Of a DNA stretch of 59,435 nucleotides, positions 1 through 49,015 are shown piece after piece. The stretch's first letter is position 1, and each line of letters opens with the position of its first letter. A program made the position numbers and the translations under genes. The stretch is from the NCBI GenBank assembly GCA_045636045.1, contig JAZTWT010000008.1, forward strand, positions 1-59,435, given 5' to 3'. The notes below the pieces were generated by a model that was given only the letters and a program-made list of their open reading frames with translations, made no database searches and was not told where the DNA came from. This DNA comes from Candidatus Enterousia sp. (GTDB lineage: Bacteria; Pseudomonadota; Alphaproteobacteria; Rs-D84).

Positions 1-1830
1 TCGGGTAAGGTTAATGCCGGTTATTATTCAACGGGTGGCGGTACCAGTGCAACACCAACCGCAAACGGTAATGGATGCGTTGGTTCTGGCAAAACTTGTG
101 GTTTGATTGCGGGCGGCTATTACGGTGGTGCCGGTGCAACATCCAATACGGGGTCGGGTACAGTATTCGCTGGACACTTCAGTACCGGTGGTGCCACAAA
201 TAACAGACCAACCGCTAATGATTGTGTCGGCACAAAATCAGATGGCACCGCGAATACATGCGGTCTGGTTGCGGCAGGTTATTGGACATCACACGGCAGT
301 AAAACCGCAACACCAACAAACAGTGAAACAGATTGTGTAAACGAACTGTGCGGTATTTTGGATGCGGGCTATTATTCGACAGGTGGTGCCACACGCAGTG
401 CCCCAACTGAAGTCGGTAATCATTGTTTTGGTACCGCATGTGGTCGTGTTGATGCAGGTTATTATTCAACCGGTGGTGGTACATCCGCATCTGGTTCATG
501 TATCAGTGGCCAGGAATGTGGACTGATTAAACTGGGTCTGTACAGTACATGTGGCGCAACCAGTGCCGGCGATACCGGTGGCAGCCTGGCAGATAAAGAC
601 TATCTGGATTGTGTCAGTGGTTGTGAATGTGGTCGTGTTGATGCAGGTTATTATTCAACCGGTGGTGGTACATCAAAAACACCAAATGGAAACGGCGATG
701 GCTGTATCGGCGATGGTAATACCTGTGGCACGGTTAATCCAGGATATTATTCACGTGGTGGCGCAGGAAACGCACAACCTACGGGGTATTTCTGCTGGGG
801 TTATAACACATATTCAGACGGAATCACAGGTTGTGGCCATGTTGATCCTGGTTATTACTCAACCGGCGGTGGTACAATGCCGAATGGTACATGTGTTTCT
901 GGCAAAAGCTGTGGTCCTGTTGCTGCTGGATATTACGCAACCGGTGGTGCAACATCCAATACTGGCAATGGCCAGGTCGCCGGTGGATATTTTGCGACCG
1001 GTGGCGCGACCAAGGCAGAACCATCTTCATCAGATTGTGTCGGCAGTGGTAATACATGTGGTTTGATTAGTGGTGGGTATTGGTCTGTGTCTGGTGCCAA
1101 GACCGCGACACCAACCGCCAAGACTGATTGCATCGGCATGGGCAATGATAACGAGTATTGTGGCGTTATTTCAGGTGGCTACTATTCAACAGCTGGTGCA
1201 ATATATAAATATCCTGCAACCCAGGGCGTTGATTGTGTTGGCGGTTCTGCATGTGGCAAGGTTAAGCCAGGCTATTACAACAATGGTTGTGGAATAAATG
1301 ATTCAGGTTCGGTATGCGACACAATAAAATACGAAGGTGGTGTCGTACCTGCAGGGTATTACACAACCGGTGGTTCGTCAATGTCGCCTGTTGCGGCCGG
1401 TTATTACTCAACCGGTGGTGGCACATCGGCCACGGGCACATGCCTCAGTGGTTATAAATGTGGCACGGTTGACGGTGGATACTATTCAACCGGTGGTGGT
1501 ATATCTGCAAATGGTACATGTATCGGTGGCAAAAGTTGTGGTTTGATTGATGCTGGTTATTATTCAACCGGTGGTGCAAAGAAGGCCAATCCATATCTGC
1601 CAAACAGTTGTGTTGGTGAAAAATCAGATGGTACTGCAAACACTTGTGGGTTGGTTAATGGTGGTTATTACTCGACCGGTGGTGCTATCAATCCTACACC
1701 AACCGCAAACGGTAATGGTTGCGTTGGCTCTGGTAAAACATGTGGCAAGGTTGCTGTGGCATACTATTCAAATGGTGGTGGTACATCTGCAGATGGTACA
1801 TGTATCGAAGGCCAAGTCTGTGGCACGTGT
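1..1830 (+). repeat. Coding tandem repeat array (GYYSTGG units of roughly 13-40 aa)
   Basis: About 21 units counted in the translation. An identical 48-bp segment lies at 438-485 and 627-674, and near-identical segments at 52-101 and 1696-1745. Confidence 0.9.
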
Positions 1831-4800
1831 AATTCCAACTATCGTGCTGGCACACTGACGGGTAAAACCACAGAATCTCAGTGCCAGGCATCCTGTGCAG
1901 CAGGCAAGCGTGTCGCAGAACCATATGCAGCATGTTCTGAACCGGCTGGTGCCTGGTTCACACCGGCGCATTTGGTTGACTATGGTCATATTTCGCCCGT
2001 AAACTATTGTATGGATGGGTATCAGTTAAATAATGAATTCCATACAGGCAGTGTGACGTCATGTGCACGCAATTTAAGTGGTGGCCAATATATGCCATCA
2101 ACACAGATTGCTGCGCGTTATATCAAGGTGACATCTGGTGGCAGTGCCCAAAATTCAGATACCCACATGTTGGAAATCCAGGCATTTGCATCAAACGATG
2201 GTACTGGTACGAACCTGTTATCTGGCAAGGGCGGAAACACGGGCAGCAAATTAACCGCGGCTACAAATGGTTCATGGACGCGTGGTGCCGGCGAATCCTA
2301 TGCCCAGGGTACAGATTTGATATGGGATTTGGGTTCTGTACAAAAACTGGGGTCATTAAAGTTTGCAATGTACACAGACGGTCGTGTATATAGGAATCTT
2401 GTGATTGCGGTATCAGAAAACAACCAGGATTACACAACTGTATTCCAGGATGCGGATTTCCAAACCCAGAACGCAACGGAGCCGACCCCGGATATGGTTG
2501 TTCTGTCTGCGTTGCCAAAATCGTGTGAAAGTGGTACTGTAAACCCAGGTAAAAAAGTTTTGCTTACACAAACGTCCAGCTGTACGGCATGTATGGGACG
2601 CACACAGTTTGCAAACACAATCTCACAGGTATGCACGACCATAGAAGAAGGCGAGTATACCACTGGATGTGATGCGAATGGTAATAAGTGTGCTTCTGCC
2701 AAATGGTGTGACGGTGCCGAATATTGTGTTGCAGGTGTTCGTTATGATTGCCCTGCGCCAGAAACAAATTGGACGGCTGGTACGGGTTCGGGTTGGACAA
2801 ATGTCACACAGTGTAATGAATACAGAAATGCTACGAATATCAGCACAGATTGCAGTTCTGGTCAGCTGGTTCGCAATGCGGTCAGTGCAACAGAATGGGC
2901 CAGCGAATTCACAGAAAAAGTGGCATTTAAAGCAGATCCTGGCGCATACATTGATCGAAGTGGCAGCCTGCCAACATGTACCCTGTGTGTTGCTGGCTCA
3001 TACAGTGCTGGCGGTACTGCAACTGCATGTACGGCATGTCCTGCAGGCAAAACCAACAGTTCGTCCAATTTAAGCACCTGTACAGGTACATGTTCGAATT
3101 CGGCGGGTGTGGCATCCGATGGTTGGGAAACAACAAAGTGGAACACGGATAACACTGTGACGAATTTGTGCACAATTAAGTCAAATGGTTGTTCTGCAAA
3201 TAATTACAAGAACAGCAACGCGTGTTCAACATGTTCCAGCGCGACCAAAAGTCTGTACACATTATCTGCTGCAGGCGCAACCAGCAAGAATGACTGTTAT
3301 CTGGAACCAACTGCAACAAAGTATGTTGCCAGTGCCGGTGCCGGTCAGGTATCGTGTGCCAAGGGTGGATATTGCTCAGGTTCAACCACGGCAAATCCGA
3401 TTAAGATTTACTTTGGTGGCACACATTCCAGCACGCACCCAACAACAGGTGGTCGTACCCAGTGCCCAGCCGGCAGTTATTGCACCGCAGGTGTAAGTGC
3501 TGCAACAACATGCACAACATTGGGTGGTGGTTTGTACAAGAACAGTGATGCAGGCTCGGACGAGCAGACAGACTGTCACTTTACAACAACGGGCGGCTAT
3601 TATATAGATGCATCAACCGACACCGCAGAAAAAGAGTGCGAAGCAAATTATTATTGCGAAGCGACCAAGCTGAACTATCCAAACACTGGCAGTCGTGCCA
3701 GCTGCCCGGATCCAACGGTCAGCACGAATGTCGAAACGATTTCAGATGTTGCGTGGTTGTCAACGGCATGTCCGGATGCAACAACCTCGAATTCCAGCGT
3801 CCAGTATGCAAAATGGCAAACCTGGGGTAATACAAAGGTGAAATCAAAATCAGCATGTCCAGCATTAATGTATGTTGACACACCGTGTGCAACATTCCAG
3901 ATACAAAGTGCGAAATTTAATACAACAACAGGTAAATACGATGCAGATAGCAGCTCCACACGAATTGCAAGTGTCGTTAATGCAGGATACTATTTCACGG
4001 AACCCTACATATCTACGTACTGCACAAATTCACCGACTGCATTGATGTACTATAAAACTGCGGCAAAGTGTCCTGAAAACAGCTATTGCCCTGGTGCAAC
4101 GGTACCAAGGTGCAACAGTGGCGAACATGTATACGGTGAACCATTTGGTAAATATGCGTGTTCATCACTGGGGGCGTTCTATACAACATCAGCGGCCGGT
4201 GCCAAGACAGACACGGCATGTTATGGAACAACAACCAAGACCAAATATATTGCAAAGGCCAATGATGCAACAGAATCCGTATGTGCAGAAAACGGCTATT
4301 GCCAGGGCGGTGTATCTGTTAACTATGGCAGTACAGGCGGCCGCACGGCATGTTCGGGTTCATATACCCTGGCGGCCAGTGGTTCAGATGATGCAAATGA
4401 TTGTTATCTGAAGACAACTGCAGGCAGCTATGTTAAATCCGCAGGTGCAGGTCAGACGACATGCCCGGCTGGTTCATGGTGCGTTGGTAATGTTGTCATC
4501 TATAAGGGTGGTTCGGTTTCTGGTCGCAACACAAGCGGTGGCAGCCAGCAATGTCCGGCGGGATATGATGATGGTACAACAGGATACAGCCTGGAATCAC
4601 AGTGTCTGATGAATGTTGACGGTGGTCACTATGTTGCAAGTGCAAAGGAAAGCACTGCCAGCGGTGTGTGTGATACAGGTTATGCCAAGATTGCACATAC
4701 AGTCCCATACGGCGAAACATCAAGTTGTAGCAAATGTACGGGCCCAACATATGCAAACGAAAAAGGTATGGAAAAATGTATGGAATGTCCAGCAGCAATA

Positions 4801-5382
4801 CGGTTGGCTGATAAAAAGCGTGGGTATTCTTATTATTCCGGTACTGGCAAAAATGATACTGTGTCAGGCTGTCGTGTAGAGTTAAACACAACAGAGTTAA
4901 CACATGGAACAACAACAGGCAATGGGATGCGTTGTAAGTATATTGAAGCCGATAAGGATTATGGCAATGGATATTGCGAACTGACGGTAGGCACAATGAA
5001 ATGTAATCCGGGGTATTATAGCAAGGGTGCTTCGACTTCGTATTGGGGTGTAACTGGCTATGAAAATTTACTTAATAATGCATGTATAGCGGTAGAAGAA
5101 GGGTATTGGTCACCTGCAGACAGTCTGACCCGTACGGCGTGTGCAAGCGGTCTGACAACATGTGGTTCGGGTCTGTGCGCGAACGAGGCCGGCGACTGTG
5201 GCCGCAAACTGCACGCCGGGGACAAGGTTATCCACCTGCGCAGTGAAAAACGCACAACGCCGACAATGGTTGTGAACATTGGTGGAACCAAGTTCTATGG
5301 AAACCTGGGCGCGGCGATTGCAAACAGCCTGCGTGTCAAGAACGGAACAAATAATTACTCGGTCGTCAATGACAACCAGTAA
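1..5382 (+). CDS. Giant Cys/Gly-rich repeat surface protein (>1790 aa, 5'-truncated by the window edge)
   Basis: Frame is open from base 1 (SGKVNAGYYSTGGGT...). It has about 21 'C-G-x-V-x-x-G-Y-Y-S-T-G-G' units, a discoidin-like insert, then CxAGxYC-type Cys-rich repeats and a Cys-free ~60-aa tail. A strong terminator follows. Confidence 0.9.
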   Translation, partial: SGKVNAGYYSTGGGTSATPTANGNGCVGSGKTCGLIAGGYYGGAGATSNTGSGTVFAGHFSTGGATNNRPTANDCVGTKSDGTANTCGLVAAGYWTSHGSKTATPTNSETDCVNELCGILDAGYYSTGGATRSAPTEVGNHCFGTACGRVDAGYYSTGGGTSASGSCISGQECGLIKLGLYSTCGATSAGDTGGSLADKDYLDCVSGCECGRVDAGYYSTGGGTSKTPNGNGDGCIGDGNTCGTVNPGYYSRGGAGNAQPTGYFCWGYNTYSDGITGCGHVDPGYYSTGGGTMPNGTCVSGKSCGPVAAGYYATGGATSNTGNGQVAGGYFATGGATKAEPSSSDCVGSGNTCGLISGGYWSVSGAKTATPTAKTDCIGMGNDNEYCGVISGGYYSTAGAIYKYPATQGVDCVGGSACGKVKPGYYNNGCGINDSGSVCDTIKYEGGVVPAGYYTTGGSSMSPVAAGYYSTGGGTSATGTCLSGYKCGTVDGGYYSTGGGISANGTCIGGKSCGLIDAGYYSTGGAKKANPYLPNSCVGEKSDGTANTCGLVNGGYYSTGGAINPTPTANGNGCVGSGKTCGKVAVAYYSNGGGTSADGTCIEGQVCGTCNSNYRAGTLTGKTTESQCQASCAAGKRVAEPYAACSEPAGAWFTPAHLVDYGHISPVNYCMDGYQLNNEFHTGSVTSCARNLSGGQYMPSTQIAARYIKVTSGGSAQNSDTHMLEIQAFASNDGTGTNLLSGKGGNTGSKLTAATNGSWTRGAGESYAQGTDLIWDLGSVQKLGSLKFAMYTDGRVYRNLVIAVSENNQDYTTVFQDADFQTQNATEPTPDMVVLSALPKSCESGTVNPGKKVLLTQTSSCTACMGRTQFANTISQVCTTIEEGEYTTGCDANGNKCASAKWCDGAEYCVAGVRYDCPAPETNWTAGTGSGWTNVTQCNEYRNATNISTDCSSGQLVRNAVSATEWASEFTEKVAFKADPGAYIDRSGSLPTCTLCVAGSYSAGGTATACTACPAGKTNSSSNLSTCTGTCSNSAGVASDGWETTKWNTDNTVTNLCTIKSNGCSANNYKNSNACSTCSSATKSLYTLSAAGATSKNDCYLEPTATKYVASAGAGQVSCAKGGYCSGSTTANPIKIYFGGTHSSTHPTTGGRTQCPAGSYCTAGVSAATTCTTLGGGLYKNSDAGSDEQTDCHFTTTGGYYIDASTDTAEKECEANYYCEATKLNYPNTGSRASCPDPTVSTNVETISDVAWLSTACPDATTSNSSVQYAKWQTWGNTKVKSKSACPALMYVDTPCATFQIQSAKFNTTTGKYDADSSSTRIASVVNAGYYFTEPYISTYCTNSPTALMYYKTAAKCPENSYCPGATVPRCNSGEHVYGEPFGKYACSSLGAFYTTSAAGAKTDTACYGTTTKTKYIAKANDATESVCAENGYCQGGVSVNYGSTGGRTACSGSYTLAASGSDDANDCYLKTTAGSYVKSAGAGQTTCPAGSWCVGNVVIYKGGSVSGRNTSGGSQQCPAGYDDGTTGYSLESQCLMNVDGGHYVASAKESTASGVCDTGYAKIAHTVPYGETSSCSKCTGPTYANEKGMEKCMECPAAIRLADKKRGYSYYSGTGKNDTVSGCRVELNTTELTHGTTTGNGMRCKYIEADKDYGNGYCELTVGTMKCNPGYYSKGASTSYWGVTGYENLLNNACIAVEEGYWSPADSLTRTACASGLTTCGSGLCANEAGDCGRKLHAGDKVIHLRSEKRTTPTMVVNIGGTKFYGNLGAAIANSLRVKNGTNNYSVVNDNQ

Positions 5383-5634: not shown

Positions 5635-5665
5635 TGTTTTTTTATTTCTTATGTATTTATACAGT

Positions 5666-7836: not shown

Positions 7837-8768
7837 ATGCGTATATTTATTTTACTTTTATCGCTGATACCGATGGTTGCAGGGGCGGATACGTTGACAT
7901 TGACGGATGCGTTGCGTGCGACATATGTATCATGCGTTGGAATTGATGATGAACTGGCTGAATTAAAGAAAATGGCTGGTATAAACACTGCGATTACTGC
8001 GGTTGGTACGGCGGCCGGCCTTGGTGCGACAGTCACTGGCTTGGTCAAGGCATCCAAGGATCGCACCGCCGAAGAACTGGAACAAATGTTGCGTGAAATT
8101 GATGCAATGCAGGCTGGTAATCAACCCCTGACCGCAGACGAATTCGAAGTGTTTTTCTCTGAATTTAACAAGGCGTATAATACCGAATTATCCAGCAAGG
8201 AATCCCTGCAGGAAGAATTGGATAAAACGGTTGCTCAGTCCAAGAAATTGGGTAATTGGCGTACTGGTTTGATGGCTGGTGCAACTGTGACCAACGTTGC
8301 CGGTGCGATTATTGCCGGTGGGAACAAGGTTGAAGGCGACCTGGCGCACAAATCGATAATTGCAAGGCCAGCATAAACAACCTGCGCAATTCAATCATGC
8401 AGGCGCGTATGAACGGCGAAGACGTGTCTGAGGCCCAGAATATCGTTTCCGTTTGTGGTGAATTTGAATACACCGACATTTCTAAAATTAATACCAAGGC
8501 CAAGGGGGCATTTATTTCGTCTGCAATTGGCGCGGCAACCGGTTTGGGTGGCACGGTGACATCTGCGATTGCGAACACGGATAAAACGCGCGACGACAAC
8601 ACCGATTCGGGAAAAAGGAAAGAAAAGGCATTAAACACAACCGCAAACGTTTTGGCGGGTGCAACATCTGTTGCATCGGCAACCGCCACAGTTTTTAACG
8701 CAACCCAAATCAGCGCAATTAAGAAAGTTGCCACAGTTGCATCAAAATGTACAGAGGTGTTGAAATGA
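7837..8768 (+). CDS. Exported glycine-zipper/coiled-coil protein, apparently one ~310-aa gene interrupted by a 1-nt frameshift near 8346 (ORFs 7837-8376 and 8397-8768)
   Basis: Signal peptide MRIFILLLSLIPMVAGA and four Gly/Ala/Thr-rich hydrophobic helices. The second frame is open from 8334 and reads AQIDNCKASINNLRNSIMQARM. The two halves resemble each other. Confidence 0.7.
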
Positions 8769-11700
8769 AGAAATTAATAACCGCATTATTTTCACTGTTT
8801 TTATTAACGCCATCATTTGCCACACCGGTTGTCGGTGAAGCGTATATTAATCAACTGCAGACTTATTATGATAACGAGAGCACTTTGACCCGAGTTGCAG
8901 TACAGGCAGCATTAAGTGCCAAGTCTACAACGATTAGCGCTGCATTAGAGGTGTTTTTTCCTGCTGCGCAAAATCGCGCTAGCGCATTGGAGAAATATCA
9001 TGCTGCGGTTGCTGCAAACGGAGGACAGGGATTAAAACCTGCGGATTTATGGGCTATCTGTTCAGCAGGTGGTTTGGACATCAACTCCCAAGATGGCAAA
9101 AACAAGTGTGGATATTTTGCCCGCGCATTGCGTGAAACATACTATGATGTATGTGATGACAAGAAAGGTCCTGGCAACAATTATTGCGTAAAGGACTTCA
9201 AAAGTATCCAAACCCAAATGCGTACCGGGACATCTATTGCCAAGGCCTGGGCAAAAACTCAAAAGAAAGACACGATTGTTTGCGAGGATAAATATCGTGG
9301 TTCATGGAATGATGACTATTTGTCTTGTTATTCAATCGTAAATACAGATGCGTATTATGAGTTTCAGTTTGATGATTTGGCAGAATCAGGTGATGTTGAC
9401 ACAGAACGCGGATTTCGCGAAGCGGCATGCGCACTGGCTGGGCTTAATTTTATCGCAGGTGGCTTTTCTAACTCTTCAGCAGGCAGCATTGCTGGTGCTA
9501 ACATGGGGGGCGGTGGGACATCCTGGCCAAGCCATTGCCCAACAACCGGAAAAAGTAATCCTGAGGCTTTGTGTGCTAAAGTAGATGCTTTTGCCAAGGA
9601 GATGGGGTTCAGCTCTCGCTACAGCGTTTCTGATGGGGGATGTGTTTTCTCGGATACTAATGTACGTGATGCTTCTGAAATCGTCAATGAATATAATGGA
9701 ATAATTGATAATTATGTATATTCAAAAGACCAATCTCAGTTACAGGCGGCATCTTCATTGGACGAGTCGATACGCATGTATGCACAAAGACGTCTGGGTG
9801 CGACCCCGATTACCAGTTTTGAATGTGATAAAGCACACAAACGTTATATTCGTGGTATCCTTGAAAATAACGAAGATATCATAACATGTCGCATCAACGG
9901 TAAACGTGTTGACTTTGTCTTTGACGATTTAACCCAGGCAACCGCACTGTGGGGCAGCCAAATTATCGAAGGCAGCCAGCAGGGATTGGATTGTCGCGCA
10001 ATGGATGGTGTATTTGATGGTGAACATTGTGCTGGCCTGACCCAGGATATGTGTGCCCAGGTTGCACAGTTAAATATGGCTGAATGTCCAGATTGCAAGG
10101 CAGCATATTGGGATGCAGAAAAAGGAATCTGTATGTTGCCCGAATCGAAACAGGCAAAAGATATTAGAACACAAATTAGTGTTGTAACCAGTGTTGGTAC
10201 TGCTGTGGTTGGACTTGTTGTGACGGTGGTTTCAGGTGGTTCTGTACTAATGATTGCCGCCGCATCAACAGCAACAGTTGCCGCAGCAACGTCAGAGGGC
10301 GTAAAACTGATGCAGGATGCGGATGCATCTGATTGGGTCGAAGAAATGAACCGTATTCAAACCCCAGAGGCCGCAGATAAATTCCTGCGTGAGCATTTGG
10401 AAGAAATTATGGGGGCAGACCACCTGGTTGAACAGCGTCGCAATGGTTTGGATGAAATGCTGTCACGGGTTTTGGGCAAAGCATCAGATGATTATTTCTA
10501 TGAATTGGTCGGCGGATGCACAGTCGTCACGGGCGATAGTGATGCTGCAGAGGTAAAATATGATACCTCATTGCCAGATTGTGCCCTGAATCCAGAAAAT
10601 GGCAGCAATACGAAAAGTACTATTATACGCATCGCAGATGCTGTTCAATTTATTGCAGGTGTTGTGATGTTGGTCGAGGGGTTGCGCCAAACAATCAATA
10701 TGTTATCAACCCGCGCTACGACAATAGCACAGAAAATAGATGCATTAAAGCAGACCGGCTGGATACGGCAAAATGGCCAATGGGTAAATCAGACCACCGG
10801 ACAAACACTTGCTACATTGCCTAAGGGGGTGCCTGGCTGGGACCCGGGTGTTAATCGTTGGCGCGGTCTGCTGTATGGACATGGCACAACCGGCAGTTTT
10901 ACAAGACAGGCAGATTTGGTAAAATGGTTGGTCACCACAAATGTCTCCCGGACACTTGCACAAACTGTGGCTGGTGTGGCAATTACAGCCACCTCTCCCA
11001 GTGAAGAGAATCCTGCCAATGTTCAGATTCCGGATCGTACAACGGATGTTCCACCGGTTGATACAACGCCGGCTGGTATACCGGTGACGGATATTGTGGT
11101 GGAACTGCCTGACTCAATTCCCCCAATAACAGGCAATGTACCAGAGAAACCTGCACAGCCACAGACACCACCTGTGCAAACCGTGCCGGTTGAAACAGAT
11201 CCTGTTTATACTGCGCCGGTTGAAACAGATCCTGTTTATACCGCGCCGGTTGAAACAATGACAGAACAGCCGACATCTGTGCAATATATGCCTGTTCAGA
11301 CGACGTATAGCCAACCAATACCAGTAGATACGCCTGAAACATCGCGCGACATAAAACCGCATCAGGTCAAGAATAATGGTGCCAAGACCGCATTGATTGC
11401 GACGGCGGCAATCGCCGGTACAATCGGGGCAGGTTGGTTGATTGGTGGGCTGATTGGTAAAGATGATGACGATAATAAAACTACATCTGCACCTGTCGCG
11501 CCCCAGGTTGACCCAGAACTGGAACGATTGATGCAAAATGCTGGTGGTGTAATCGGTGTTATAAATGGTCAATCATTAAAATTGATACCATTGCCTACAA
11601 CGATTAATTCATACGCGCCAATTGTTGATATTAATGGCAAAGCGGTTGTCGTTGTGGATTATCGTGGGCACAGATTGCCATACTATATGAATCCAATGAC

Positions 11701-12022
11701 AATGCGTTGGGAACCATTATTGGGAATCGGTGTAAATGCTGGATGGTTTAATGTTTATCCAAATCCATCACAATCTGGCATCGCAATCATTGATTCGATT
11801 AGTGGACAACTGGTACAGAAATTAAAACCATCTGTTGTTTCGCGTTATGTTGGCAATTATGCAACCGGTACGCGTTTCCCAATGGCTGGCCCGGCGGCAT
11901 ATCAGACGATTAATGCCGAATTCCCGAATGGGGTTGTTAATACAAACACTGGCGCAATGAGTCCATCTGACCAGTTGTTGTATAACAATAATTATCAGTT
12001 GATTCAGCAGAAGTTGCGGTAA
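8765..12022 (+). CDS. Large exported multidomain protein: duplicated Cys-containing domain, hydrophobic hairpin, Pro/Thr-rich linker, further hydrophobic helix, C-terminal domain
   Basis: The ATG at 8765 overlaps the upstream TGA (ATGA) and follows GAGG. Signal peptide MKKLITALFSLFLLTPSFA; ~1085-aa open frame. Confidence 0.85.
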   Translation: MKKLITALFSLFLLTPSFATPVVGEAYINQLQTYYDNESTLTRVAVQAALSAKSTTISAALEVFFPAAQNRASALEKYHAAVAANGGQGLKPADLWAICSAGGLDINSQDGKNKCGYFARALRETYYDVCDDKKGPGNNYCVKDFKSIQTQMRTGTSIAKAWAKTQKKDTIVCEDKYRGSWNDDYLSCYSIVNTDAYYEFQFDDLAESGDVDTERGFREAACALAGLNFIAGGFSNSSAGSIAGANMGGGGTSWPSHCPTTGKSNPEALCAKVDAFAKEMGFSSRYSVSDGGCVFSDTNVRDASEIVNEYNGIIDNYVYSKDQSQLQAASSLDESIRMYAQRRLGATPITSFECDKAHKRYIRGILENNEDIITCRINGKRVDFVFDDLTQATALWGSQIIEGSQQGLDCRAMDGVFDGEHCAGLTQDMCAQVAQLNMAECPDCKAAYWDAEKGICMLPESKQAKDIRTQISVVTSVGTAVVGLVVTVVSGGSVLMIAAASTATVAAATSEGVKLMQDADASDWVEEMNRIQTPEAADKFLREHLEEIMGADHLVEQRRNGLDEMLSRVLGKASDDYFYELVGGCTVVTGDSDAAEVKYDTSLPDCALNPENGSNTKSTIIRIADAVQFIAGVVMLVEGLRQTINMLSTRATTIAQKIDALKQTGWIRQNGQWVNQTTGQTLATLPKGVPGWDPGVNRWRGLLYGHGTTGSFTRQADLVKWLVTTNVSRTLAQTVAGVAITATSPSEENPANVQIPDRTTDVPPVDTTPAGIPVTDIVVELPDSIPPITGNVPEKPAQPQTPPVQTVPVETDPVYTAPVETDPVYTAPVETMTEQPTSVQYMPVQTTYSQPIPVDTPETSRDIKPHQVKNNGAKTALIATAAIAGTIGAGWLIGGLIGKDDDDNKTTSAPVAPQVDPELERLMQNAGGVIGVINGQSLKLIPLPTTINSYAPIVDINGKAVVVVDYRGHRLPYYMNPMTMRWEPLLGIGVNAGWFNVYPNPSQSGIAIIDSISGQLVQKLKPSVVSRYVGNYATGTRFPMAGPAAYQTINAEFPNGVVNTNTGAMSPSDQLLYNNNYQLIQQKLR
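11185..11257 (+). repeat. 30-bp coding tandem repeat (PVETDPVYTA x ~2.4)
   Basis: gccggttgaaacagatcctgtttatac(t/c)gc at 11185 and 11215, with a partial copy at 11245. Confidence 0.9.
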
Positions 12023-31132: not shown

Positions 31133-32377
31133 TTACCTTGTACCTGTAACATTTATTCTTGGCGTTGGCTGCGTATTCATTTCCTGACTTTCCTTCGTAC
31201 CATACACGCACTCTTTATAGTCTTGAGGCGAAGCCATAGTCCAACATTGATCTGTTAAATTATTCTTAAAATCTCCTTTTAATTTTCCCTTGCCAAATTG
31301 CAAATCATTGTGTGTAAAACCCTGTGCAGGTTTACAATCACCACTCTCAATATCAAAATATTCCCCCAGTTTACTACACACAACGCATGTGCCATCCTTC
31401 GGACTGGGGCCACCACGAACGTCCGACATGCATTCTACGCACTCATTTGTCTTTCCGGCCTCCGGAAATGCCTTGTCAGGATCCTTACAAACATAAATAT
31501 AACAATTTGAGAAATTGTTTTTATGCAATCTGTGCAACTTAATGTCAAAATCACTTTCCGGGAAATTTCCACAGAACACTGGATTTGTCGACTCTAACAT
31601 CGCCTGATTGGCCAGAATACAATTTGTGTTATCTTCATTTGGTTGAAAACCCTGCTTGCAAAGTAATTTTCGTGTATTAGACATCGTTCCAACACGTGTC
31701 ACCCATGATACGACACCATTCCAGCTATCCCAATCACAACCAACCAAAACCGGGGCCGCAATAACACCGTTTTCCAAAAACTGCACAATCCCCAAGATAA
31801 CATTCTGTTCAGCCTTGTCCTTATTGTTTGTTCTATTAAGCCAATAGTATTCATTAAAACCCGTCACATTATTTTCGCGACGAATCAAATCGTCTTCACC
31901 ACTTGTATGTCTATGTACCCCTTTACTGAGCTTTTTTATAACATCTACACCATCAGTGGCATTATCGACATAATACTGCTTTTCACAGTTTGGACCCGAA
32001 TATCCACGTTCACACAACCATGCACACTTATCCGATGAATAGCCCGCCGCTTGATAATATTCAAACCATACAGTTGTGTTTTTTTTCTTGTTGGCACACT
32101 GCAACTGATACGGACAGAAATATCCACCATGTTCATTAATTTGTGTACCAATAACCGCAACAATCGCCCCTTCGTCAGACCAGGTACCTCTACTCCCCTT
32201 TGACAGATCACCATCTACAATAAACTCACCGGCAGACCCAGAAGTCACAATGGTGTTGTTTGGCGTATACCCCCAGGCTTTTTTTATATTAGCCGAGGCA
32301 ATTTGAATCGCGCTTGCAGAATACACAATCCCTGTAAAAGACACAATTGCAGCAAAAAGAAACCTAACTTTTTTCAT
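31133..32377 (-). CDS. Exported Cys-rich hypothetical protein (~414 aa)
   Basis: Signal peptide MKKVRFLFAAIVSFTGIVYSASA, about 20 Cys, EGF-like CERGYSGPNC. It starts just after the upstream stop (alternative start 32386). Confidence 0.82.
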   Translation of the reverse strand: MKKVRFLFAAIVSFTGIVYSASAIQIASANIKKAWGYTPNNTIVTSGSAGEFIVDGDLSKGSRGTWSDEGAIVAVIGTQINEHGGYFCPYQLQCANKKKNTTVWFEYYQAAGYSSDKCAWLCERGYSGPNCEKQYYVDNATDGVDVIKKLSKGVHRHTSGEDDLIRRENNVTGFNEYYWLNRTNNKDKAEQNVILGIVQFLENGVIAAPVLVGCDWDSWNGVVSWVTRVGTMSNTRKLLCKQGFQPNEDNTNCILANQAMLESTNPVFCGNFPESDFDIKLHRLHKNNFSNCYIYVCKDPDKAFPEAGKTNECVECMSDVRGGPSPKDGTCVVCSKLGEYFDIESGDCKPAQGFTHNDLQFGKGKLKGDFKNNLTDQCWTMASPQDYKECVYGTKESQEMNTQPTPRINVTGTR

Positions 32378-32389
32378 ATTCGTCATTCC

Positions 32390-34918: not shown

Positions 34919-34964
34919 TTCAATTCTCTCTTTTTTGCATTCTAACATTTTTTGCTATTTTAAA

Positions 34965-42670: not shown

Positions 42671-45600
42671 TTACCAAGACATATATCCCGGACTACATGT
42701 GCGTTCACACTTATTGCGTGATGCATTCCACTTTCGCGATCCTGTCTCATCAGAATAAGTATCACAAATCAGAATACATTCATTGTTTTCCAGCGTGTAC
42801 TTCTCGCCATCATACATACAGGATGCAATTTCACAACCATCAACATAACTGCTGGCCGCTAATTCACCACCTGCGCTGTACATATTATTGCAGCGTCCAC
42901 ACTGTTTCCACAATTCATTTGTCTGACTACGGTCATTTGTATAACCTGGATCACACTTGGTTGCGATACAATCACCCCACTTGCTCATCTTATGATTCCA
43001 TTCGCGTATACCCACACCATGTTCTACTTCACACAGCTGTTCATCTGCCTGACAAACATTGTCACCCAAATGATACCCGTCTTCACATTCCAATGCCACA
43101 CATTCACCAAAGGTTTGCTTTGCAGAATTCCATACCCGTTCCGCAGAAACCGCATTTGGCAACAAACATTTAACTGTGTTCAATTCGCACTTCTGACCGT
43201 TTGGATGGAATCCACTTACACAAGATTCTACAACACAGTTTCCACCATTTTCTTTGTACGACACCGCATTGTCTCGTGCACATGGACTACATTTCCCTGC
43301 AATCATTTCGTAATCATAATTACATGATGTTTCCACACAAACACCCTTGACTATATTACACGGATTACCTGTCACGGACACACCCTTATACCGACACTGC
43401 ACTGGATAGAATTCAGTATCCGACAACTGTACCGCCTGACCATATTCAACATCATATGGCTCACACATTACATAGCAATCTGAAACTTCATCCGAACCCA
43501 CCTTAGACAACACATGTGTACCATTCGTCAGACTCTCACATGTCTTTGGCGCACCGCCTTCGACATCTGGACGACAGACATTATTTTCTGGACACAGCAC
43601 ACATTTGCCATCACTTAATGTGTATCCAGCCTGACACAATTCCACCTTGCATGTATCCTTGCCCTTACCATAGTAATCGCGTCCCGACATTTCTATCGCA
43701 TTTGTCGCATTCAGACAGTCTGTATAACACTGCTGCGCTGATTCTGCACCTGCATCTGCCATATCAAAGCCTGCTGGACATACCTCGCGTCCACCAATCT
43801 CTGTACGCATCAACTTGATGCCACCTGCACAATATCCGTCTTCTGCACACAGAACCTGACCAAAACCTGCAACGGCAACATAACTACCCTTATCGGTCAC
43901 CAGATAACAGTCATCAATCGAACCACTACCCGCATCAGATCTGGTATACACACCATTTGTCAACTCTGAACAAGTGTACGGCTTACCATTGTCCTTGACC
44001 GGGCTACATACATTGTCTGCTGGACAAACCTCACAAACACCACTTACCAGCGTATAACCAGCCTTGCATGTTGTGACCCCACAGGTATCATTTGCATCTG
44101 ATCCATAATAGTCACGCCCCGACATCTGTGTTGCGTTATCACCCATTGCACAACGCTGATAACATTCTGTTTCAACCGTCGCCCCCACATCAGACGTATA
44201 CCCAGAACCAAAGGTAGAGCAGGCCATATTACCACCTGTACCTGTAGCCAATACCTTTGTGCCACCCAGACAGTAATCACCAACCTTACATTTTACCTCA
44301 CCTTGACCCGCTGCTTGTACATAATAACCCGGTTTGGTCATCACATAACACGCATCCACAGACACTGTGTTTTCTGGCGCCTTTGTATATTTATCCCCCG
44401 TCAGCTCGGAACACTTATGTGGCCTACCACCATCATAATCGGGATCGCACACATGATCCTCTGGACAGCTGCCACATGTGCCATACGCCAATATATAACC
44501 ACTCTCGCATGCTGTTGCTTCACATGTATCCGCGCCATCGCCATAATAGTCACGACCAATCATCTGTGTTGCATGCTTATCTAATGCACATGCTGTATAA
44601 CACTGTTCTATCTTGCCAGCACCAGCATCTGATTTATACCCAGCAACACACTGTACACGTCCACCTGTTGCAGCGTATTTCACAAGCTCGCCACCCGGGC
44701 AATAACCATCCTCAGAACACTGAACCTGACCTGCGCCAGCTACGGCAACATATTTTCCTGCTTCGGTTTCCAGATAGCAATTATCAACAGAACCATTACC
44801 TGCATCTGACTTAGTATAAACACCCCCCGTCAGTTCAGAACACGAATACTGTTTACCACTATCCTTTAGCGGATCACACACATGGTCTGCCGCACAAACC
44901 GCACAACTTCCATTTAATACGGTATACCCAACATCACACAGTGTCGCTTTACACGTATCCGCAACCGTTGCACCGTAATAGTCATTACCATTCACCTGGA
45001 TTGCATTCTGAACTGCAGACACCACACACGGCTTATAACATCTATCTGCCATCTTTGTCCCAGCCACAGATGTATAACCTGTCCCCAGGGTCGCGCACGA
45101 CGTGTTTCCTCCAACGCCACTAACTTTTACCGTCACATTTCCTGGACAATAATCACCAACTTTACATGTCTCCTGTCCTTGACCTGGCGCTGCAACATAC
45201 TTACCTGCCTCGGTCACAAGATAACATTCTGACGCACCCGATTCAGACTTATATCCTGCCGGACAAGATGTGCAATCACTGGTCTGACCATAGTACACAT
45301 TATGCGCTGTCTTATATGTGCCTGCGGCGCACGCCATCACAGAATTTCCATTCCAATAATACCCATCTTCAACAGATACATAACAGTGATCTGGTGTGCT
45401 GGCGCCATTTGAAGATATTGCACTCTCCCACTCAACGTCATCGGACAAATCAGCACAGGACTCGCTGCCACCTTCATTGCCATAGTAAACCTTTTTATTA
45501 CCTGGGCAATAATATGGGGCTGCGCATGTCTTCACAATATTACCAACAATATAACTCCCTTTTGTTGTCATTGTGTAACAGTCATCAACGGCATCGCTGT

Positions 45601-48600
45601 TCGCAACACTGCTTGGGAACACATCATCTGTTTCCTCTGCACAAGAGTACTTAGTACCCTCTGTACAATAACTACCAGATTCACAAGACGAACATTCACT
45701 TGTGTTACCAAAGCTAACCTTAATCGCTGCCGCTGTATATTTGCCTGCCGGACATACTGTCATCTTCGTGCTTTCTGCTGTTGCCAAATACGAACCTTGT
45801 GGTACGTTAATCTGACACTGCGACGCATCGTCATATCCTGTACCTCCGTCCACATATCCTGCTGGACACGCCACACGGCATCCTGTCACACCGATTGTCA
45901 CTTTACCTTCACCTGGGCAATAATATCCCTTTGGACAGTCGACAAACGATGTACCATTATAGTACTTGCCCGGACGACACATCTCGACATTTATCTCCCA
46001 TTTGGCATATACAGACTTGCGTGCTGTACATGTTCCTGCCGGCAGGGTGGTAATAACACTACCACTAAAGTTGTTATTATCATACCAACCTACAAACTTG
46101 TAATCTTCCCTTGCAATCTGGTTTGCGCTTGGCAACACTATCGCACCTGATTCAACCGTACACTCTGCAACCTGGTTGAAACTCTCGCTAATTTCACCAC
46201 CATTCGTATAGTACTCAATATTATACTTAATTGGACTACAAGTTGGATTGTAAGCGCCATTATTCTGCAGATTTTCATAATTTGCAGAACAAGATGTGCT
46301 GTATGTACAAACACCCTTTGGTGCCGTCATACCACAGTTTGCACCTTTACCCGGGGCACACGCTGTACAATTTTTCCAAACCGCATACAGTTCCACACGA
46401 GCTCCTTCTTCAGCAGTCAGATTAACAACTGACTGACCATTTGTATATTCTGGCACCGTCGCTGTTTGGGTTCTTGCCCAACCCAAAAATTCACGATTGT
46501 TTGTATCGAATGTAAATTCATTCAACATTAACTCTTGCGACTGTGTACATACATGAGACTGCTCCATCGTACGTTTCACAACACCTGCATCTTCATAAGT
46601 ACCACCATTACCATAATAGACAACGGTATACGTATTCAGCTTCCAACGTGCATACAGCGTAATATCAGATGTCAGCAATGCATTTTTATACTTTGCCTCA
46701 TTAGAGATAAATCTACCTTTTTCATCTGTGACCTGTGCATAATCCGTCGAACCCGCCACTGAATTTGTCACATAACCAACGAATGTATAATACTCGCGTG
46801 TTGGCACAGGCAATGCCGTAATTTCATCTGTCGCACCAGAATTATTAAACCAACCTGTATTATACTTCTGATACACATACTTCTCTGCTGCACCACTAAA
46901 CGTACCTTCATTTGCATCCAAATTCACAGTATACACATGTGGCGTACACAACTCATCAGCTGATGTATCTGTCACAGAATCTGTCGGATCAATATTTGCA
47001 CTCATATTCTTGTCATACCCAGTATTACATGTGAACGATGCATTCGGACACATATATGCCGTAGCGGCCCCTGGCAAAACCTTAGAATAGCCATAAAACT
47101 TATAACCACCATTTGTCTTTTCATGTCCCACATCATAAGAACATGTTCCTGTACCTGGCAATGGACATACCGGCTCCGTACAAGGTAAATTAACAACTTT
47201 ATAACATGCATTCACACCATTATAGGAATCAGGTACAAAGAAAGCAGTTGTTAAAGAACGATCGTATTCTCCGTCTTCAAAAGAAGAACAAAGGTCACAC
47301 GTTCCATTCTCGAAATCACCAATGTTTGTATAATAATAATCCGACTTACAAGTCACCTTTTGAAGGGCGCAATACGTATCATCAGAGCTACCAGGCGCAG
47401 CAACACAAACATCTGGTTCTGCATAATACTTCACACCGTTAAATCTGCGCGATTCATAGAGACAAGAGTTTACCCCCTGAGAACTACCATCACACAAAGG
47501 ATTTTCCTTTATACATCTACACGACCCACCCGAAGTATAACACTGACCTATATCAGCAGCACCTTCAACAGAGTAGTTATAATCTGATGGACAATCCATA
47601 ATTGGGCACGTCACACCATCAACCTCACCACCCGGGCAATAACTACCTGCTGGGCACAACTTAATCTTACGCTCACCCGTATCATAATACATACCTGGCT
47701 CACAATTACCATCCGACATCCATTGTGCATACAGTATCATATTACTATCTACATCCCATTCTTTAACAGGATTTCCCAACATATTATAATACTGTGTACC
47801 TCCTTCAGGTTCAGAATAGTATCCCTTGAATACATGACCTTCCATTGTTGGCATCTCAGCGCCCGGCAATAATTCACCATACGTCGCAACAACCGATGTC
47901 GCACCACCTTCGGCGCCATTGTGGTTCAATGTAATTACATATGTTTTCGCTTCCCACTTGGCATACAAATTATAATCAGACAAGCAGGTTCCTGCCGCAA
48001 TATGCGTTATCGAATCACCTGTCAGACCAGAATTCTGATACCAACCTTTGAAAGCATACCCCGTCTTACTTGGTATTGGCAATACAATATCTTCTGATTC
48101 CACAGAACATGCCATACTGTTAGCGCTGCTGCCACCCACAATCGTGCCACCATTCGCATTCAATGTGACCTTATAAGAAACTAATTCACAAGATGATGCA
48201 CCCGTCTTGCCATTTGTTGAATACCCCTCATTGCAAGGTTCGCACAAAACACGCCCATTCTTTGCTTGCTCATACGATACCGTACGATATTTACTTGATG
48301 TATCAACAGGGCAATCAACAACCTTTTCGGCAGTCGCATCAAAAAATTTACCTGCCACAACAGACGCAGAACAATTTTCTGGTCCAACATTCCCCAATCC
48401 AGTCAACCCATTACCATTCCATGTCAGGTTACCGTATTCTAAATCCTCGCAAAGCATGCGACCTGCAGTATCCCCATAATAGACCTGCATTCCACCTGGG
48501 CAATAAGAGCCAGCAGGACACTGAACAAGTCCAGACACCCCTGCAATATAAGAACCAGCTTCAACAACAGTATAACAATCATTTATAGAATCACTTCCTT

Positions 48601-49015
48601 CCACACTATACTGAAAACCAGCAGGACATTTATTTGGAATACCTGCTTCACAATAAAAACCTGTTTCGCATTTTTTTTGCTCAATAACGCCGATTTCCGA
48701 ACAATCCATACCATTCTGACACACATATCTACCAACCTCAACCGTTCCATCGTATAAATCACCACCTGGACAATAATATCCACGCGAACAATCTACCAAC
48801 TCCGTACCATTAAAGTACTTTCCAGCAGGGCATTCCTTGGATTCAATTTTTTTATACTGCGCAACAAAAGTAATATCTTCTGTATAAAGGAACTCTCCAA
48901 GAGAATCACCAGGCATATAAACAGTTGTCGCAAACGATTCGGACGCCCCGAACAACATCACCATAACAGACACAAAAAACACCAGAATCTTCGACATCAA
49001 GCGCTTACAATTCAT
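42671..49015 (-). CDS. Giant exported Cys-rich repeat protein with five InlB B-repeat (Flg_new)-like domains (2114 aa)
   Basis: Signal peptide ending SFA. Five Y.V...NGG...P...GY.F.GW...LYA.W modules and many CPAGSYCPGG-type repeats. Confidence 0.92.
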   Translation of the reverse strand: MNCKRLMSKILVFFVSVMVMLFGASESFATTVYMPGDSLGEFLYTEDITFVAQYKKIESKECPAGKYFNGTELVDCSRGYYCPGGDLYDGTVEVGRYVCQNGMDCSEIGVIEQKKCETGFYCEAGIPNKCPAGFQYSVEGSDSINDCYTVVEAGSYIAGVSGLVQCPAGSYCPGGMQVYYGDTAGRMLCEDLEYGNLTWNGNGLTGLGNVGPENCSASVVAGKFFDATAEKVVDCPVDTSSKYRTVSYEQAKNGRVLCEPCNEGYSTNGKTGASSCELVSYKVTLNANGGTIVGGSSANSMACSVESEDIVLPIPSKTGYAFKGWYQNSGLTGDSITHIAAGTCLSDYNLYAKWEAKTYVITLNHNGAEGGATSVVATYGELLPGAEMPTMEGHVFKGYYSEPEGGTQYYNMLGNPVKEWDVDSNMILYAQWMSDGNCEPGMYYDTGERKIKLCPAGSYCPGGEVDGVTCPIMDCPSDYNYSVEGAADIGQCYTSGGSCRCIKENPLCDGSSQGVNSCLYESRRFNGVKYYAEPDVCVAAPGSSDDTYCALQKVTCKSDYYYTNIGDFENGTCDLCSSFEDGEYDRSLTTAFFVPDSYNGVNACYKVVNLPCTEPVCPLPGTGTCSYDVGHEKTNGGYKFYGYSKVLPGAATAYMCPNASFTCNTGYDKNMSANIDPTDSVTDTSADELCTPHVYTVNLDANEGTFSGAAEKYVYQKYNTGWFNNSGATDEITALPVPTREYYTFVGYVTNSVAGSTDYAQVTDEKGRFISNEAKYKNALLTSDITLYARWKLNTYTVVYYGNGGTYEDAGVVKRTMEQSHVCTQSQELMLNEFTFDTNNREFLGWARTQTATVPEYTNGQSVVNLTAEEGARVELYAVWKNCTACAPGKGANCGMTAPKGVCTYSTSCSANYENLQNNGAYNPTCSPIKYNIEYYTNGGEISESFNQVAECTVESGAIVLPSANQIAREDYKFVGWYDNNNFSGSVITTLPAGTCTARKSVYAKWEINVEMCRPGKYYNGTSFVDCPKGYYCPGEGKVTIGVTGCRVACPAGYVDGGTGYDDASQCQINVPQGSYLATAESTKMTVCPAGKYTAAAIKVSFGNTSECSSCESGSYCTEGTKYSCAEETDDVFPSSVANSDAVDDCYTMTTKGSYIVGNIVKTCAAPYYCPGNKKVYYGNEGGSESCADLSDDVEWESAISSNGASTPDHCYVSVEDGYYWNGNSVMACAAGTYKTAHNVYYGQTSDCTSCPAGYKSESGASECYLVTEAGKYVAAPGQGQETCKVGDYCPGNVTVKVSGVGGNTSCATLGTGYTSVAGTKMADRCYKPCVVSAVQNAIQVNGNDYYGATVADTCKATLCDVGYTVLNGSCAVCAADHVCDPLKDSGKQYSCSELTGGVYTKSDAGNGSVDNCYLETEAGKYVAVAGAGQVQCSEDGYCPGGELVKYAATGGRVQCVAGYKSDAGAGKIEQCYTACALDKHATQMIGRDYYGDGADTCEATACESGYILAYGTCGSCPEDHVCDPDYDGGRPHKCSELTGDKYTKAPENTVSVDACYVMTKPGYYVQAAGQGEVKCKVGDYCLGGTKVLATGTGGNMACSTFGSGYTSDVGATVETECYQRCAMGDNATQMSGRDYYGSDANDTCGVTTCKAGYTLVSGVCEVCPADNVCSPVKDNGKPYTCSELTNGVYTRSDAGSGSIDDCYLVTDKGSYVAVAGFGQVLCAEDGYCAGGIKLMRTEIGGREVCPAGFDMADAGAESAQQCYTDCLNATNAIEMSGRDYYGKGKDTCKVELCQAGYTLSDGKCVLCPENNVCRPDVEGGAPKTCESLTNGTHVLSKVGSDEVSDCYVMCEPYDVEYGQAVQLSDTEFYPVQCRYKGVSVTGNPCNIVKGVCVETSCNYDYEMIAGKCSPCARDNAVSYKENGGNCVVESCVSGFHPNGQKCELNTVKCLLPNAVSAERVWNSAKQTFGECVALECEDGYHLGDNVCQADEQLCEVEHGVGIREWNHKMSKWGDCIATKCDPGYTNDRSQTNELWKQCGRCNNMYSAGGELAASSYVDGCEIASCMYDGEKYTLENNECILICDTYSDETGSRKWNASRNKCERTCSPGYMSW
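43472..45226 (-). repeat. Four ~146-aa coding super-repeats in ABAB order
   Basis: Each unit runs CY..T..G.YV...G.G...C...YC...G(R/N)DYYG...DTC....C..GY......C..C..(D/N).VC.P...C..LT. Units 1 and 3 have CKVGDYC; units 2 and 4 have CxEDGYC. Confidence 0.88.

Follow-up and report, generated by a model that had tools for sequence, protein, structure and literature searches.

Cysteine-rich surface coats occur among protists, e.g., in the form of the variant-specific surface proteins (VSPs) of Giardia and the immobilisation antigens of ciliates. Among symbionts with reduced genomes, large surface-protein families are known from Rickettsia (the Sca proteins), Mycoplasma (its adhesins) and the Patescibacteria, whereas C-terminal sorting domains of diderm bacteria are represented by the C-terminal domain of the type IX secretion system (T9SS) of Bacteroidota and by the barrels of autotransporters. 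The present analysis concerns a stretch of 59,435 nt (hereafter the window), which is the entire contig C8 (JAZTWT010000008.1) of a genome of Candidatus Enterousia sp. (other C-numbers likewise denote contigs of this genome). In it, seven loci code for proteins of exported type, among them two Cys-rich giants: giant 1 (1..5382, + strand) and giant 2 (42671..49015, - strand). On the whole, it seems fairly probable that these loci belong to a large exported proteome that is specific to the lineage and comprises several unrelated families, with the giants being modular, adhesin-like surface proteins. The data support viewing these proteins as a lineage-specific surface repertoire, in which the surface location of the giants is predicted from their sequences.

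Giant 2 resembles the internalin-type and Bacteroidota proteins of the Flg_new family (PF09479) in having Flg_new repeats together with a TIGR02543 match, but it lacks the leucine-rich repeats and the LPXTG or GW anchors of these proteins, consists mostly of Cys-rich modules, belongs to a diderm alphaproteobacterium and ends in a different C-terminal domain. Both giants also share the C...G.Y...C repeat logic of the eukaryotic Ephrin_rec_like and TNFR-type cysteine-rich domains (CRDs), such as those of the Eph receptors, CaSR, TAS1R and a Chlamydomonas mastigoneme protein; they depart from them in their borderline scores, Sec signal peptides and arrays of dozens of modules, and in having no kinase, transmembrane or glycosylphosphatidylinositol part. 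In common with the Giardia VSPs and the ciliate antigens, the giants have dense Cys repeats, are large and vary between strains; unlike the VSPs, they have neither a Pfam VSP match nor a C-terminal transmembrane anchor, and there are only a few per genome rather than hundreds. The conserved C-terminal domain of giant 1 (its tail) can be likened to the diderm sorting domains, being a stretch of ~70-100 aa on cargo proteins that differ greatly in size and sequence, several to a dozen of them per genome, in a restricted lineage. It differs from the T9SS and autotransporter domains in having no Pfam or NCBIfam match and in being modelled as six short strands instead of a 12-strand barrel, and its role in sorting is hypothetical; moreover, Alphaproteobacteria are not known to have a T9SS. 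As in the reduced-genome symbionts, a tiny genome without biosynthesis goes together here with heavy investment in lineage-specific exported proteins, but the families have no sequence relation to those of Rickettsia (Sca), Mycoplasma or Patescibacteria, and the Cys-rich chemistry is unusual for those groups. A parallel with Patescibacteria has been drawn for such gut lineages in the available text of a recent study (PMC12306168). Literature searches found no published description of the families themselves, and that study, the closest one, mentions just 'hypothetical membrane-bound proteins' in the part of it considered here, supplements excluded (PMC12306168).

The giants and the tail of giant 1

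An initial annotation of this DNA had assigned about a third of the window to seven loci for unannotated, exported, Cys-rich proteins, and much of this is borne out. Open reading frames (ORFs) lie at all seven places and total 20,612 nt (34.7% of 59,435), the six complete N-termini each have a basic start and an ensuing hydrophobic stretch that resemble a Sec-type signal peptide, and these lineage-specific, exported-type proteins are mostly without a Pfam or NCBIfam family; the first locus, described as lacking its N-terminus in the window, has a signal-peptide-like start on contig C29. The Cys-rich label, in contrast, fits only four of the loci. Against a genome-wide baseline of 1.64% Cys (from a crude set of 956 ORFs), giant 1 (106 Cys in 1,793 aa, 5.9%), giant 2 (144 in 2,114 aa, 6.8%), a 417-aa protein (18, 4.3%) and an 852-aa protein (31, 3.6%) are significantly enriched, with binomial P values from 2e-4 to 6e-45, whereas the products of 7837-8768 (two frames, ~310 aa, 4 Cys), 8765-12022 (1,085 aa, 20 Cys, 1.8%) and 54614-55534 (306 aa, 7 Cys, 2.3%) are not enriched overall. 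In the genome as a whole, a rough heuristic applied to the crude ORF set picks out 33 proteins with signal-peptide-like starts, a length of 200 aa or more and a Cys content of 3% or more; they account for 20,815 of 298,564 aa.

The ORF of giant 1 is open at the contig start, and its 1,793 aa are the C-terminal part of a protein that measures 2,118 aa or more. The N-terminus of the giant is coded by C29:1-1086(-), 362 aa with the signal-peptide-like start, and window 1-111, which falls inside the repeat region of the giant, is matched letter for letter by C29:1-111 in reverse complement; because of this exact 111-nt overlap, C29 and C8 probably join. The joined length of at least 2,118 aa assumes that no repeats are collapsed, and the repeat number between the two contigs may be collapsed. 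By motif segmentation, the repeat region (1..1800, +) comprises ~20 tandem units of 26-54 aa with the pattern (A/G/P)GYYSTGGxTSA...C...CG. It is followed by a weak discoidin (F5/8 type C)-like stretch picked out by Pfam (aa 749-828; 2245..2484, +), lying within a region (aa 604-872) that is 38-44% identical in two relatives, and then by an array of ~830 aa of Ephrin_rec_like-type Cys-rich modules (2578..5070, +), recognised by PF07699 and by similarity to a paralogue. This paralogue (C9:6336-9719; 1,127 aa, 88 Cys) attains 32.7 bits with PF07699, over the cut-off, and giant 1 is 28.6% identical to it over 482 aa. A sequence search of the PDB with giant 1 returned nothing. Near-identical contigs are carried by four bovine-gut sequencing runs (four runs compared, from three studies), and the giant is a site of variation in contigs of other runs: its repeat part (1..1800) shows joints and skips, and there are skips and uncovered parts elsewhere within it, e.g., from 3473 to 4570 in two runs, with the flanking genes covered. 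Among 40 genomes of the family, it is detected in 14 at E <= 1e-8.

The view that dense Cys repeats of the protist kind are uncommon in bacteria is a fair one with respect to Ephrin_rec_like, which is matched in 5/151 alphaproteobacterial genomes at E <= 1e-3 (3/151 over the cut-off) and in none of 14 control genomes; what has to be tempered is the placement of the window's own giants in that class, their membership being borderline. The five matching genomes all measure ~1.0-1.2 Mb or less. Besides those of this lineage, the only matching genomes in the 151-genome sample are G166, G217 and G234, of 1.0-1.2 Mb and from three other families. According to the part of the source considered here, Ephrin_rec_like arose in early eukaryotes, with one bacterial case cited (PMC6993872). 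In the Atlas, aa 860-1793 of giant 1 score 0.82 to haptophyte Ephrin_rec_like clusters, a value to be taken as a lead only, and an ancient transfer is a possible origin of the module type.

Giant 2 (2,114 aa, 144 Cys) has a signal peptide, then Flg_new repeats and then Cys-rich modules. Three of the repeats (47957-48175, 47723-47941 and 46001-46225, all -) are over the cut-off and a fourth (46724-46933, -) is weaker; the protein as a whole scores 98.7 bits with Flg_new against a cut-off of 27, which places it in that family, and 44.8 bits with NCBIfam TIGR02543 against 20.95. The Pfam search reported no Ephrin_rec_like match on giant 2. A module shared by the two giants, as initially proposed, is confirmed by a pairwise match between aa 1070-1173 of giant 1 (3208-3519, +) and aa 1384-1474 of giant 2 (44594-44866, -), with 41% identity over 104 aa and E 6e-11. 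The proposal of adhesins can be retained in the case of the giants, which look adhesin-like by virtue of Flg_new, Ephrin_rec_like-type modules and the weak discoidin match; the remaining loci are other families.

The same-genus comparison delimits a conserved C-terminal region of giant 2 (aa 1754-2114; 42674..43756, -), which is 54-55% identical in 4/4 same-genus genomes searched as against 30-45% for the rest of the protein, in orthologues of 2,102-2,358 aa. Its last ~230 aa have a fixed Cys pattern ending ...C..G[YF]..W, with the exact W terminus in 13 of 17 relatives, and giant 2 itself is detected in 27/40 family genomes. The end of the protein is weakly related to CPL1-like units by way of proteins on C12 and C18, of which the former has a CPL1-like score of 20.2 bits, below the cut-off, and the latter is over it; the C18 protein also has two CarboxypepD_reg families over their cut-offs. 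Both of these Cys-rich proteins (C12:1-2100 and C18:1-1863), which have units in common with the end of giant 2, stop at contig edges in an identical stretch of coiled coil and Gly zipper, suggesting a repeated gene end that breaks the assembly. Against the PDB by sequence, giant 2 gave one internalin B row (E 0.073). The rows for MSC, TFIIA and other Pfam families on paralogues, all below cut-off, were taken as compositional.

The tail of giant 1 (5074..5376, +), as defined by similarity, an alignment of 18 sequences (A2) and a structural model, comprises the last Cys module and a beta part of ~60 aa, and is a diverged copy of its kind ending YSVVNDNQ. The last ~100 aa of the giant are 41-55% identical to the C-ends of many ORFs of relatives (120-2,416 aa), several per genome, and the tail also occurs once elsewhere in the present genome (C9:17905-18483, 192 aa). 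In 20 fetched examples it stops no more than a few residues short of the stop codon and mostly ends YSVYDDSM, the consensus of A2 being ...GDCGRxLHxG..YLRSxKKTTPSLN..G..YYGNM..KG.LR.N..G..YSVYDDSM; none of the 18 sequences has a meaningful Pfam or NCBIfam family match. A profile of the tail finds it in 65/71 genomes of family f1 (62/63 of the genus), with 1-12 matches per genome on ORFs of ~60 to 6,219 aa, and in 0/29 genomes of five sister families. When run against 1.84 billion representatives, the profile recovers 882 clusters at E <= 1e-3; tightening the limit to 1e-10 leaves 557, and a limit of 1e-30 leaves 188. The best 150 tail-bearing representatives have a median length of 1,008 aa and a median Cys content of 5.7%, and a core-only hidden Markov model locates the tail in 149 of them: it ends at most 5 aa from the C-terminus in 116 and at most 15 aa in 126, is followed by 109-142 further residues in 16 (P0128, P0176 and P0185 among them) and is otherwise placed in 7. 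Fourteen of the 16 extensions are one conserved Cys domain of ~130-140 aa (...CWC..TSP...W...C..KC..YCANNMKG...NITYRTNLY...), the different 109-aa extension being that of P0201 and P0203. A motif similar to the Cys domain is present in this genome in C9:16402-17898.

An AlphaFold model of the last 120 aa of giant 1 (pLDDT 77, pTM 0.67) places a Cys module before six short strands. The module (model residues 11-61) aligns with the CRDs of EphA2 and EphB2 at Z 4.8-4.9 (rmsd 1.8-2.0 over 45-46 residues) and with those of CaSR and TAS1R at Z 5.1-5.5, and Foldseek with the tail model returned only E-values of 1 or higher.

The remaining loci

The 852-aa family with its neighbour, the 306-aa protein and the pair at 7837-12022 are each regarded as envelope components in their own right, with roles that are still to be assigned. 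The 852-aa exported protein (32390..34948, -) is described by a 32-sequence alignment (A1) and a model (pLDDT 66) as a signal peptide, a basic disordered part of ~130 aa (29-159), a long all-helical region (helices at 166-730) and a small mixed end. It has ~11 paralogues in this genome and its family counts 9-16 matches per genome in 31/31 family genomes of ~0.9 Mb, with weak matches alone in other families of the order; 950 matches were found among 8,000 candidates scored in a large protein database. In A1, 11 of 15 invariant columns are Cys, although the Cys in the AVVC of the 852-aa protein is not kept in the family consensus. Orthologues across the genus are 50-73% identical and paralogues 20-34%. 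No named fold family could be assigned: Foldseek of the model against the PDB gave nothing at E < 0.1, and VIA gave generic three-helix bundles only, with Z <= 9.2. One family match is labelled Muribaculaceae (P0060), which was taken, unchecked, as a binning or label error. Just upstream of the gene is a candidate 84-aa ORF (34965-35219, -) with 5 Cys and no Pfam match.

Directly downstream of the 852-aa gene lies that of the 417-aa exported Cys-rich protein (31133..32386, -; 18 Cys), which is fast-evolving (30-40% identity within the genus) and is found in 21/40 family genomes. In 6/7 genomes with both genes located it adjoins the 852-aa orthologue on the downstream side, and in the seventh both are at contig ends. 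Within the present genome, only 3 of the ~12 852-aa paralogues have a Cys-rich downstream neighbour. The pair (852-aa family gene, then 417-aa-like gene) occurs in two tandem copies in G055 at C1:184566-191964.

The pair at 7837-12022 begins with the gene for a ~310-aa exported protein with Gly/Ala/Thr-rich, zipper-like hydrophobic segments (7837..8768, +). It is split here, with one frame stopping at 8376 and the second running over 8334-8768. Contigs of 4/4 other runs (three studies) carry one extra base behind 8345, because of which the frame break near 8345-8376 can be put down to an assembly error or to a strain-specific change. The gene has three copies in the genome (on C8, C17 and C25), and, since the paralogues on C17 and C25 read through and all four runs carry the extra base, 7837-8768 is to be regarded as one gene in those strains. 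Pfam also placed Diphtheria_T on 7837-8376, with E 0.006 and 17 bits (cut-off 27), a match ascribed to chance. The second gene of the pair (8765..12022, +) codes for a 1,085-aa membrane protein with a signal peptide and an N-terminal domain (first ~470 aa) in which 18 of the 20 Cys are concentrated. Its further parts are four hydrophobic segments, a linker rich in Pro and a domain of ~190 aa at the C-terminus. It has no Pfam or NCBIfam match, only 21 homologues were found, and its distribution is patchy (8/40 family genomes, 0/4 of the same genus). Paralogues of the gene were detected on C9 and C27, and a 497-aa ORF directly behind the third copy of the 310-aa gene (C25:7432-8925) is a candidate further copy by position alone. 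In 2/4 runs the 1,085-aa gene is largely uncovered or replaced, with the genes between it and giant 1 covered. Several of the genome's exported proteins have zipper-like Gly/Ala/Thr segments.

The 306-aa exported protein (54614..55534, +), coded just upstream of a response regulator and a histidine kinase recognised by Pfam, is present as a single copy in 34/40 family genomes and in all 26 good ones, at 52-82% identity, and has 752 homologues, all unnamed and without a Pfam family; the Atlas gave no usable match for it. Rather than being a variable adhesin, it belongs to the conserved core of envelope proteins.

These differences bear on the proposal of the initial annotation that the seven loci form one dispersed contact system, in which adhesins act with membrane-inserting partners. 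What speaks for such a system is that all the loci are of exported type and lineage-specific, that the 852-aa/417-aa pair is kept in 6/7 genomes, that the ~310-aa gene recurs on C8, C17 and C25, followed by the 1,085-aa gene on C8 and the 497-aa candidate on C25, and that the zipper-like segments are found in several exported proteins. However, at least five unrelated families are involved, with differing phyletic and evolutionary behaviour: the 306-aa gene is in 26/26 good genomes and the 1,085-aa gene in 0/4 of the same genus, with the 417-aa protein (21/40), giant 2 (27/40) and giant 1 (14/40 at E <= 1e-8) each following yet another pattern. Sequence modules are common to the giants only, and unrelated housekeeping genes separate the loci. 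A single system is accordingly an unlikely explanation of the set, the evidence favouring several families within one exported proteome.

Export, oxidative folding and the nature of the giants

As part of that proteome, the giants may be supposed to follow a route of several steps. The genome has SecA and SecB, and the signal peptides of the giants would direct them by the Sec pathway to the periplasm. There, their disulfides would be formed by a membrane-anchored DsbA-like oxidoreductase with a CGYC site; the one in this genome (C22:12389-13213) has two N-terminal hydrophobic helices, and DsbA-like proteins of ~275-300 aa are present in 38/41 family genomes (25/26 good ones). The folded protein is envisaged as a long stalk of Ephrin_rec_like-type Cys modules bearing binding modules, namely, Flg_new and possibly a discoidin-like domain. 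The conserved C-terminal domain, different in each giant, might serve in surface sorting, anchoring or assembly, a role suggested by its being the sole part to stay the same where the body changes from species to species and even from strain to strain. Crossing of the outer membrane would most plausibly proceed via a secretin-type machine, since type II secretion handles folded, disulfide-bonded proteins in other bacteria; the link between tail and machine is hypothetical. The genome has a secretin adjoining a TcpQ-like protein (C19:63236-65869) and a cluster of T2SSF, T2SSE ATPase and an R64-type PilO-like protein (C4:18027-22629), in addition to BamA, two TolC-like proteins and VirB4, as found by family search and Pfam. 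The two clusters, C4:18027-22629 and C19:63236-65869, together make up a gene set of the type IVb pilus or type II secretion class. The VirB4 (C4:30475-32904) is a lone one, and a VirB11-like ATPase match is at C28:7920-8258. The likely role of the giants would be attachment to a partner cell, glycans or mucosa, in a bacterium unable to make most metabolites.

A comparison with established export routes leads to a partial revision of the statement that no export signal is visible on the giants. It stands in that beta-barrel, RTX and lipobox features are lacking. Neither giant has a Pfam family of the autotransporter barrel, giant 2 ending in a Cys-rich repeat region and giant 1 in the Cys module and six short strands. 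RTX proteins and other type I substrates have Ca-binding nonapeptide repeats, few Cys and no N-terminal signal peptide; the giants have no RTX family in Pfam, signal-peptide-like N-termini and 5.9-6.8% Cys. Inspection of the N-termini revealed no lipobox ([LVI][ASTVI][GAS]C), giant 2 reading ...MLFGASESFATTVY with no Cys, and 0/18 tails match the Por secretion tail profiles of the T9SS (Pfam and NCBIfam, E <= 1; the T9SS machinery genes were not searched). Likewise, no Giardia VSP is among the Pfam matches at E <= 0.05, and no giant has a hydrophobic segment beyond the signal peptide. The pattern is also the reverse of that of polymorphic toxin systems, in which the N-terminal and body regions are conserved and the toxin tips at the C-terminus vary: here it is the C-terminal domains that are conserved and the bodies that vary. 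The part of the statement to be revised follows from the conserved C-termini in which both giants end and from the envelope and secretion machinery in the genome.

A bolder extension, which we regard as rather doubtful though worth formulating, is that the ~70-residue ...YSVYDDSM tail is a recognition tag for an as yet undescribed, lineage-restricted pathway of surface sorting or anchoring. By this pathway, these ~0.9-Mb gut alphaproteobacteria would display fast-changing, eukaryote-like Cys-rich repeat proteins of up to ~6,000 aa, which might fasten the cells to a partner (a protist, a bacterium or an epithelium); their disulfides would be formed by a membrane-anchored DsbA operating without DsbB or VKOR.

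Several observations weigh against the giants being surface adhesins of the kind outlined above. The domain evidence is in part borderline: on giant 1, PF07699, whose cut-off is 23.1 bits, scores 19.4 bits with the protein and 23.5 when the matches in the frame are added up, PF00754 (discoidin) scores 19.6 bits (E 1.1e-3) and falls below its cut-off of 28.2, and the alignments of the last Cys module to the Cys-rich domains of Eph, CaSR, TAS1R and TNFR are weak (Z 3-5.5). The beta part of the tail, searched within the 120-aa model, has no match in Foldseek or VIA, and the tail could equally be a functional head, e.g., a receptor-binding tip. The signal peptides are predictions made by eye and from a hydropathy heuristic alone. 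The co-occurrence with Dsb proteins that the initial annotation had suggested looking for is found for DsbA only: neither DsbB nor VKOR was detected in any of the 41 family genomes, by searches that were positive in 6/14 and 3/14 control genomes, respectively. Hence neither a DsbA-DsbB nor a DsbA-VKOR pathway is complete in these 41 genomes, the DsbA-like protein being present and a membrane re-oxidant not found, and the disulfide bonding of the Cys in the giants is a prediction from sequence. None of the listed sequencing runs that carry the stretch is an RNA run. Finally, a periplasmic or outer-membrane structural role may be envisaged for the giants.

The last point may be generalised to the idea that the Cys-rich proteins stay in the envelope, either in the periplasm or on the outer membrane's inner face, and have a structural or scavenging function there instead of acting as adhesins in contact. 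The presence of DsbA and the hydrophobic Gly-zipper-like segments in many of these proteins would suit it, as would the unproven outer-membrane route of the giants and their want of autotransporter, RTX or lipobox features. Nevertheless, proteins whose modules (Flg_new, Ephrin_rec_like) are of adhesin type and whose lengths range from 2,000 to >6,000 aa are typical of cell surfaces, and the strain-level turnover and fast divergence suggest selective pressure from outside, so that confinement to the envelope seems improbable. 

A different emphasis would make the 852-aa helical family the central element, namely, a variable coat for antigenic or phase variation comparable to the trypanosome variant surface glycoprotein or the Borrelia Vsp/Vlp proteins, with the giants being secondary. 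An exported, helical, Cys-stapled protein with 11 invariant Cys, with 9-16 matches in each of 31/31 genomes of ~0.9 Mb and next to a fast-evolving gene, has some of the appearance of such a coat. Yet its paralogues are old (20-34% identity), and the maintenance of orthologues at 50-73% identity in the genus is the opposite of what is expected of a family of cassettes that switch rapidly. Neither silent cassettes nor switching repeats were seen, though no search was aimed at them, and nothing beyond generic helical bundles (Z <= 9.2) came out of the fold searches. This possibility is thus held to be slight. That the Cys-rich genes are foreign or misassembled DNA of a eukaryote (protist), or a recent transfer from one, is highly improbable, for despite the mostly eukaryotic type of the Ephrin_rec_like module and the haptophyte Atlas clusters (0.82, a lead only), the genes lie on one contig amid bacterial housekeeping genes, have bacterial-type signal peptides and uninterrupted ORFs, and share the same tail in 62/63 genomes of the genus, with misassembly already contradicted.

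Genomic setting and significance

The genome (961,943 bp in 30 contigs; completeness 84.8%, contamination 0.12%) is one of a consistently small kind, 61/61 sampled genomes of the order measuring 0.5-1.1 Mb. The available text of PMC12306168 describes Rs-D84 (Ca. Enterousia and kin) as gut bacteria with genomes of ~1 Mb or less that are without most biosynthesis and respiration, and for which a partner-dependent life is proposed. The window is best read as chromosomal DNA from an uncultured alphaproteobacterium of ruminant guts with a reduced genome (~1 Mb), which in genome size, habitat and class is consistent with Rs-D84. Its first 9 kb are partly present in 20 sequencing-run rows from 11 studies, covering bovine and sheep gut, other gut and manure metagenomes, and the cluster mates of SecA and RuvB as well as the matches of the 852-aa and 306-aa proteins bear only names of the type 'MAG: Alphaproteobacteria bacterium'. 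The GC content of the contigs is ~0.39-0.44; within the window it is 0.47-0.50 in giant 1, 0.42-0.47 in giant 2 and ~0.39-0.45 in the rest.

The genes with Pfam matches between the loci are of the housekeeping sort: iPGM, peroxiredoxin, AccD-AccA, CysS, TrcR, RpoD, a UvrD-type helicase, RecN, a GT2 glycosyltransferase, an AmiC-type amidase, RsmH, DnaE, SecA, DUF2817, ExbB/TolQ, RuvB, a hydrolase, the response regulator and histidine kinase, and ArgS. AccD and AccA (the beta and alpha subunits of the acetyl-CoA carboxylase carboxyltransferase) are fused in one 581-aa ORF (13737-15482). A 650-aa protein at 21795-23747 (-) has an N-terminal hydrophobic segment and long coiled-coil-looking sequence and no Pfam match. 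At 5625-5637, 3' of giant 1, 11 intergenic bases are swapped for 43 other letters in 3/4 runs; an HTH_3 gene (5698-6183, -) adjoins this site.

The alphaproteobacteria of the gut with genomes below 1 Mb, common inhabitants of livestock that have so far escaped cultivation, are believed to depend on partner cells for their living, and a large share of such a genome goes to exported, mostly unannotated proteins. The recurrent C-terminal domain that marks variable giants and the helical multigene family with its 9-16 matches per genome offer handles on this repertoire, while a DsbA without a known re-oxidant presents an oxidative-folding puzzle in an anaerobe. Taken as testable markers, they could help in finding the lineage's partner, its export route and the way in which its surface is built, and with them the annotation of hundreds of 'hypothetical' proteins would become possible.

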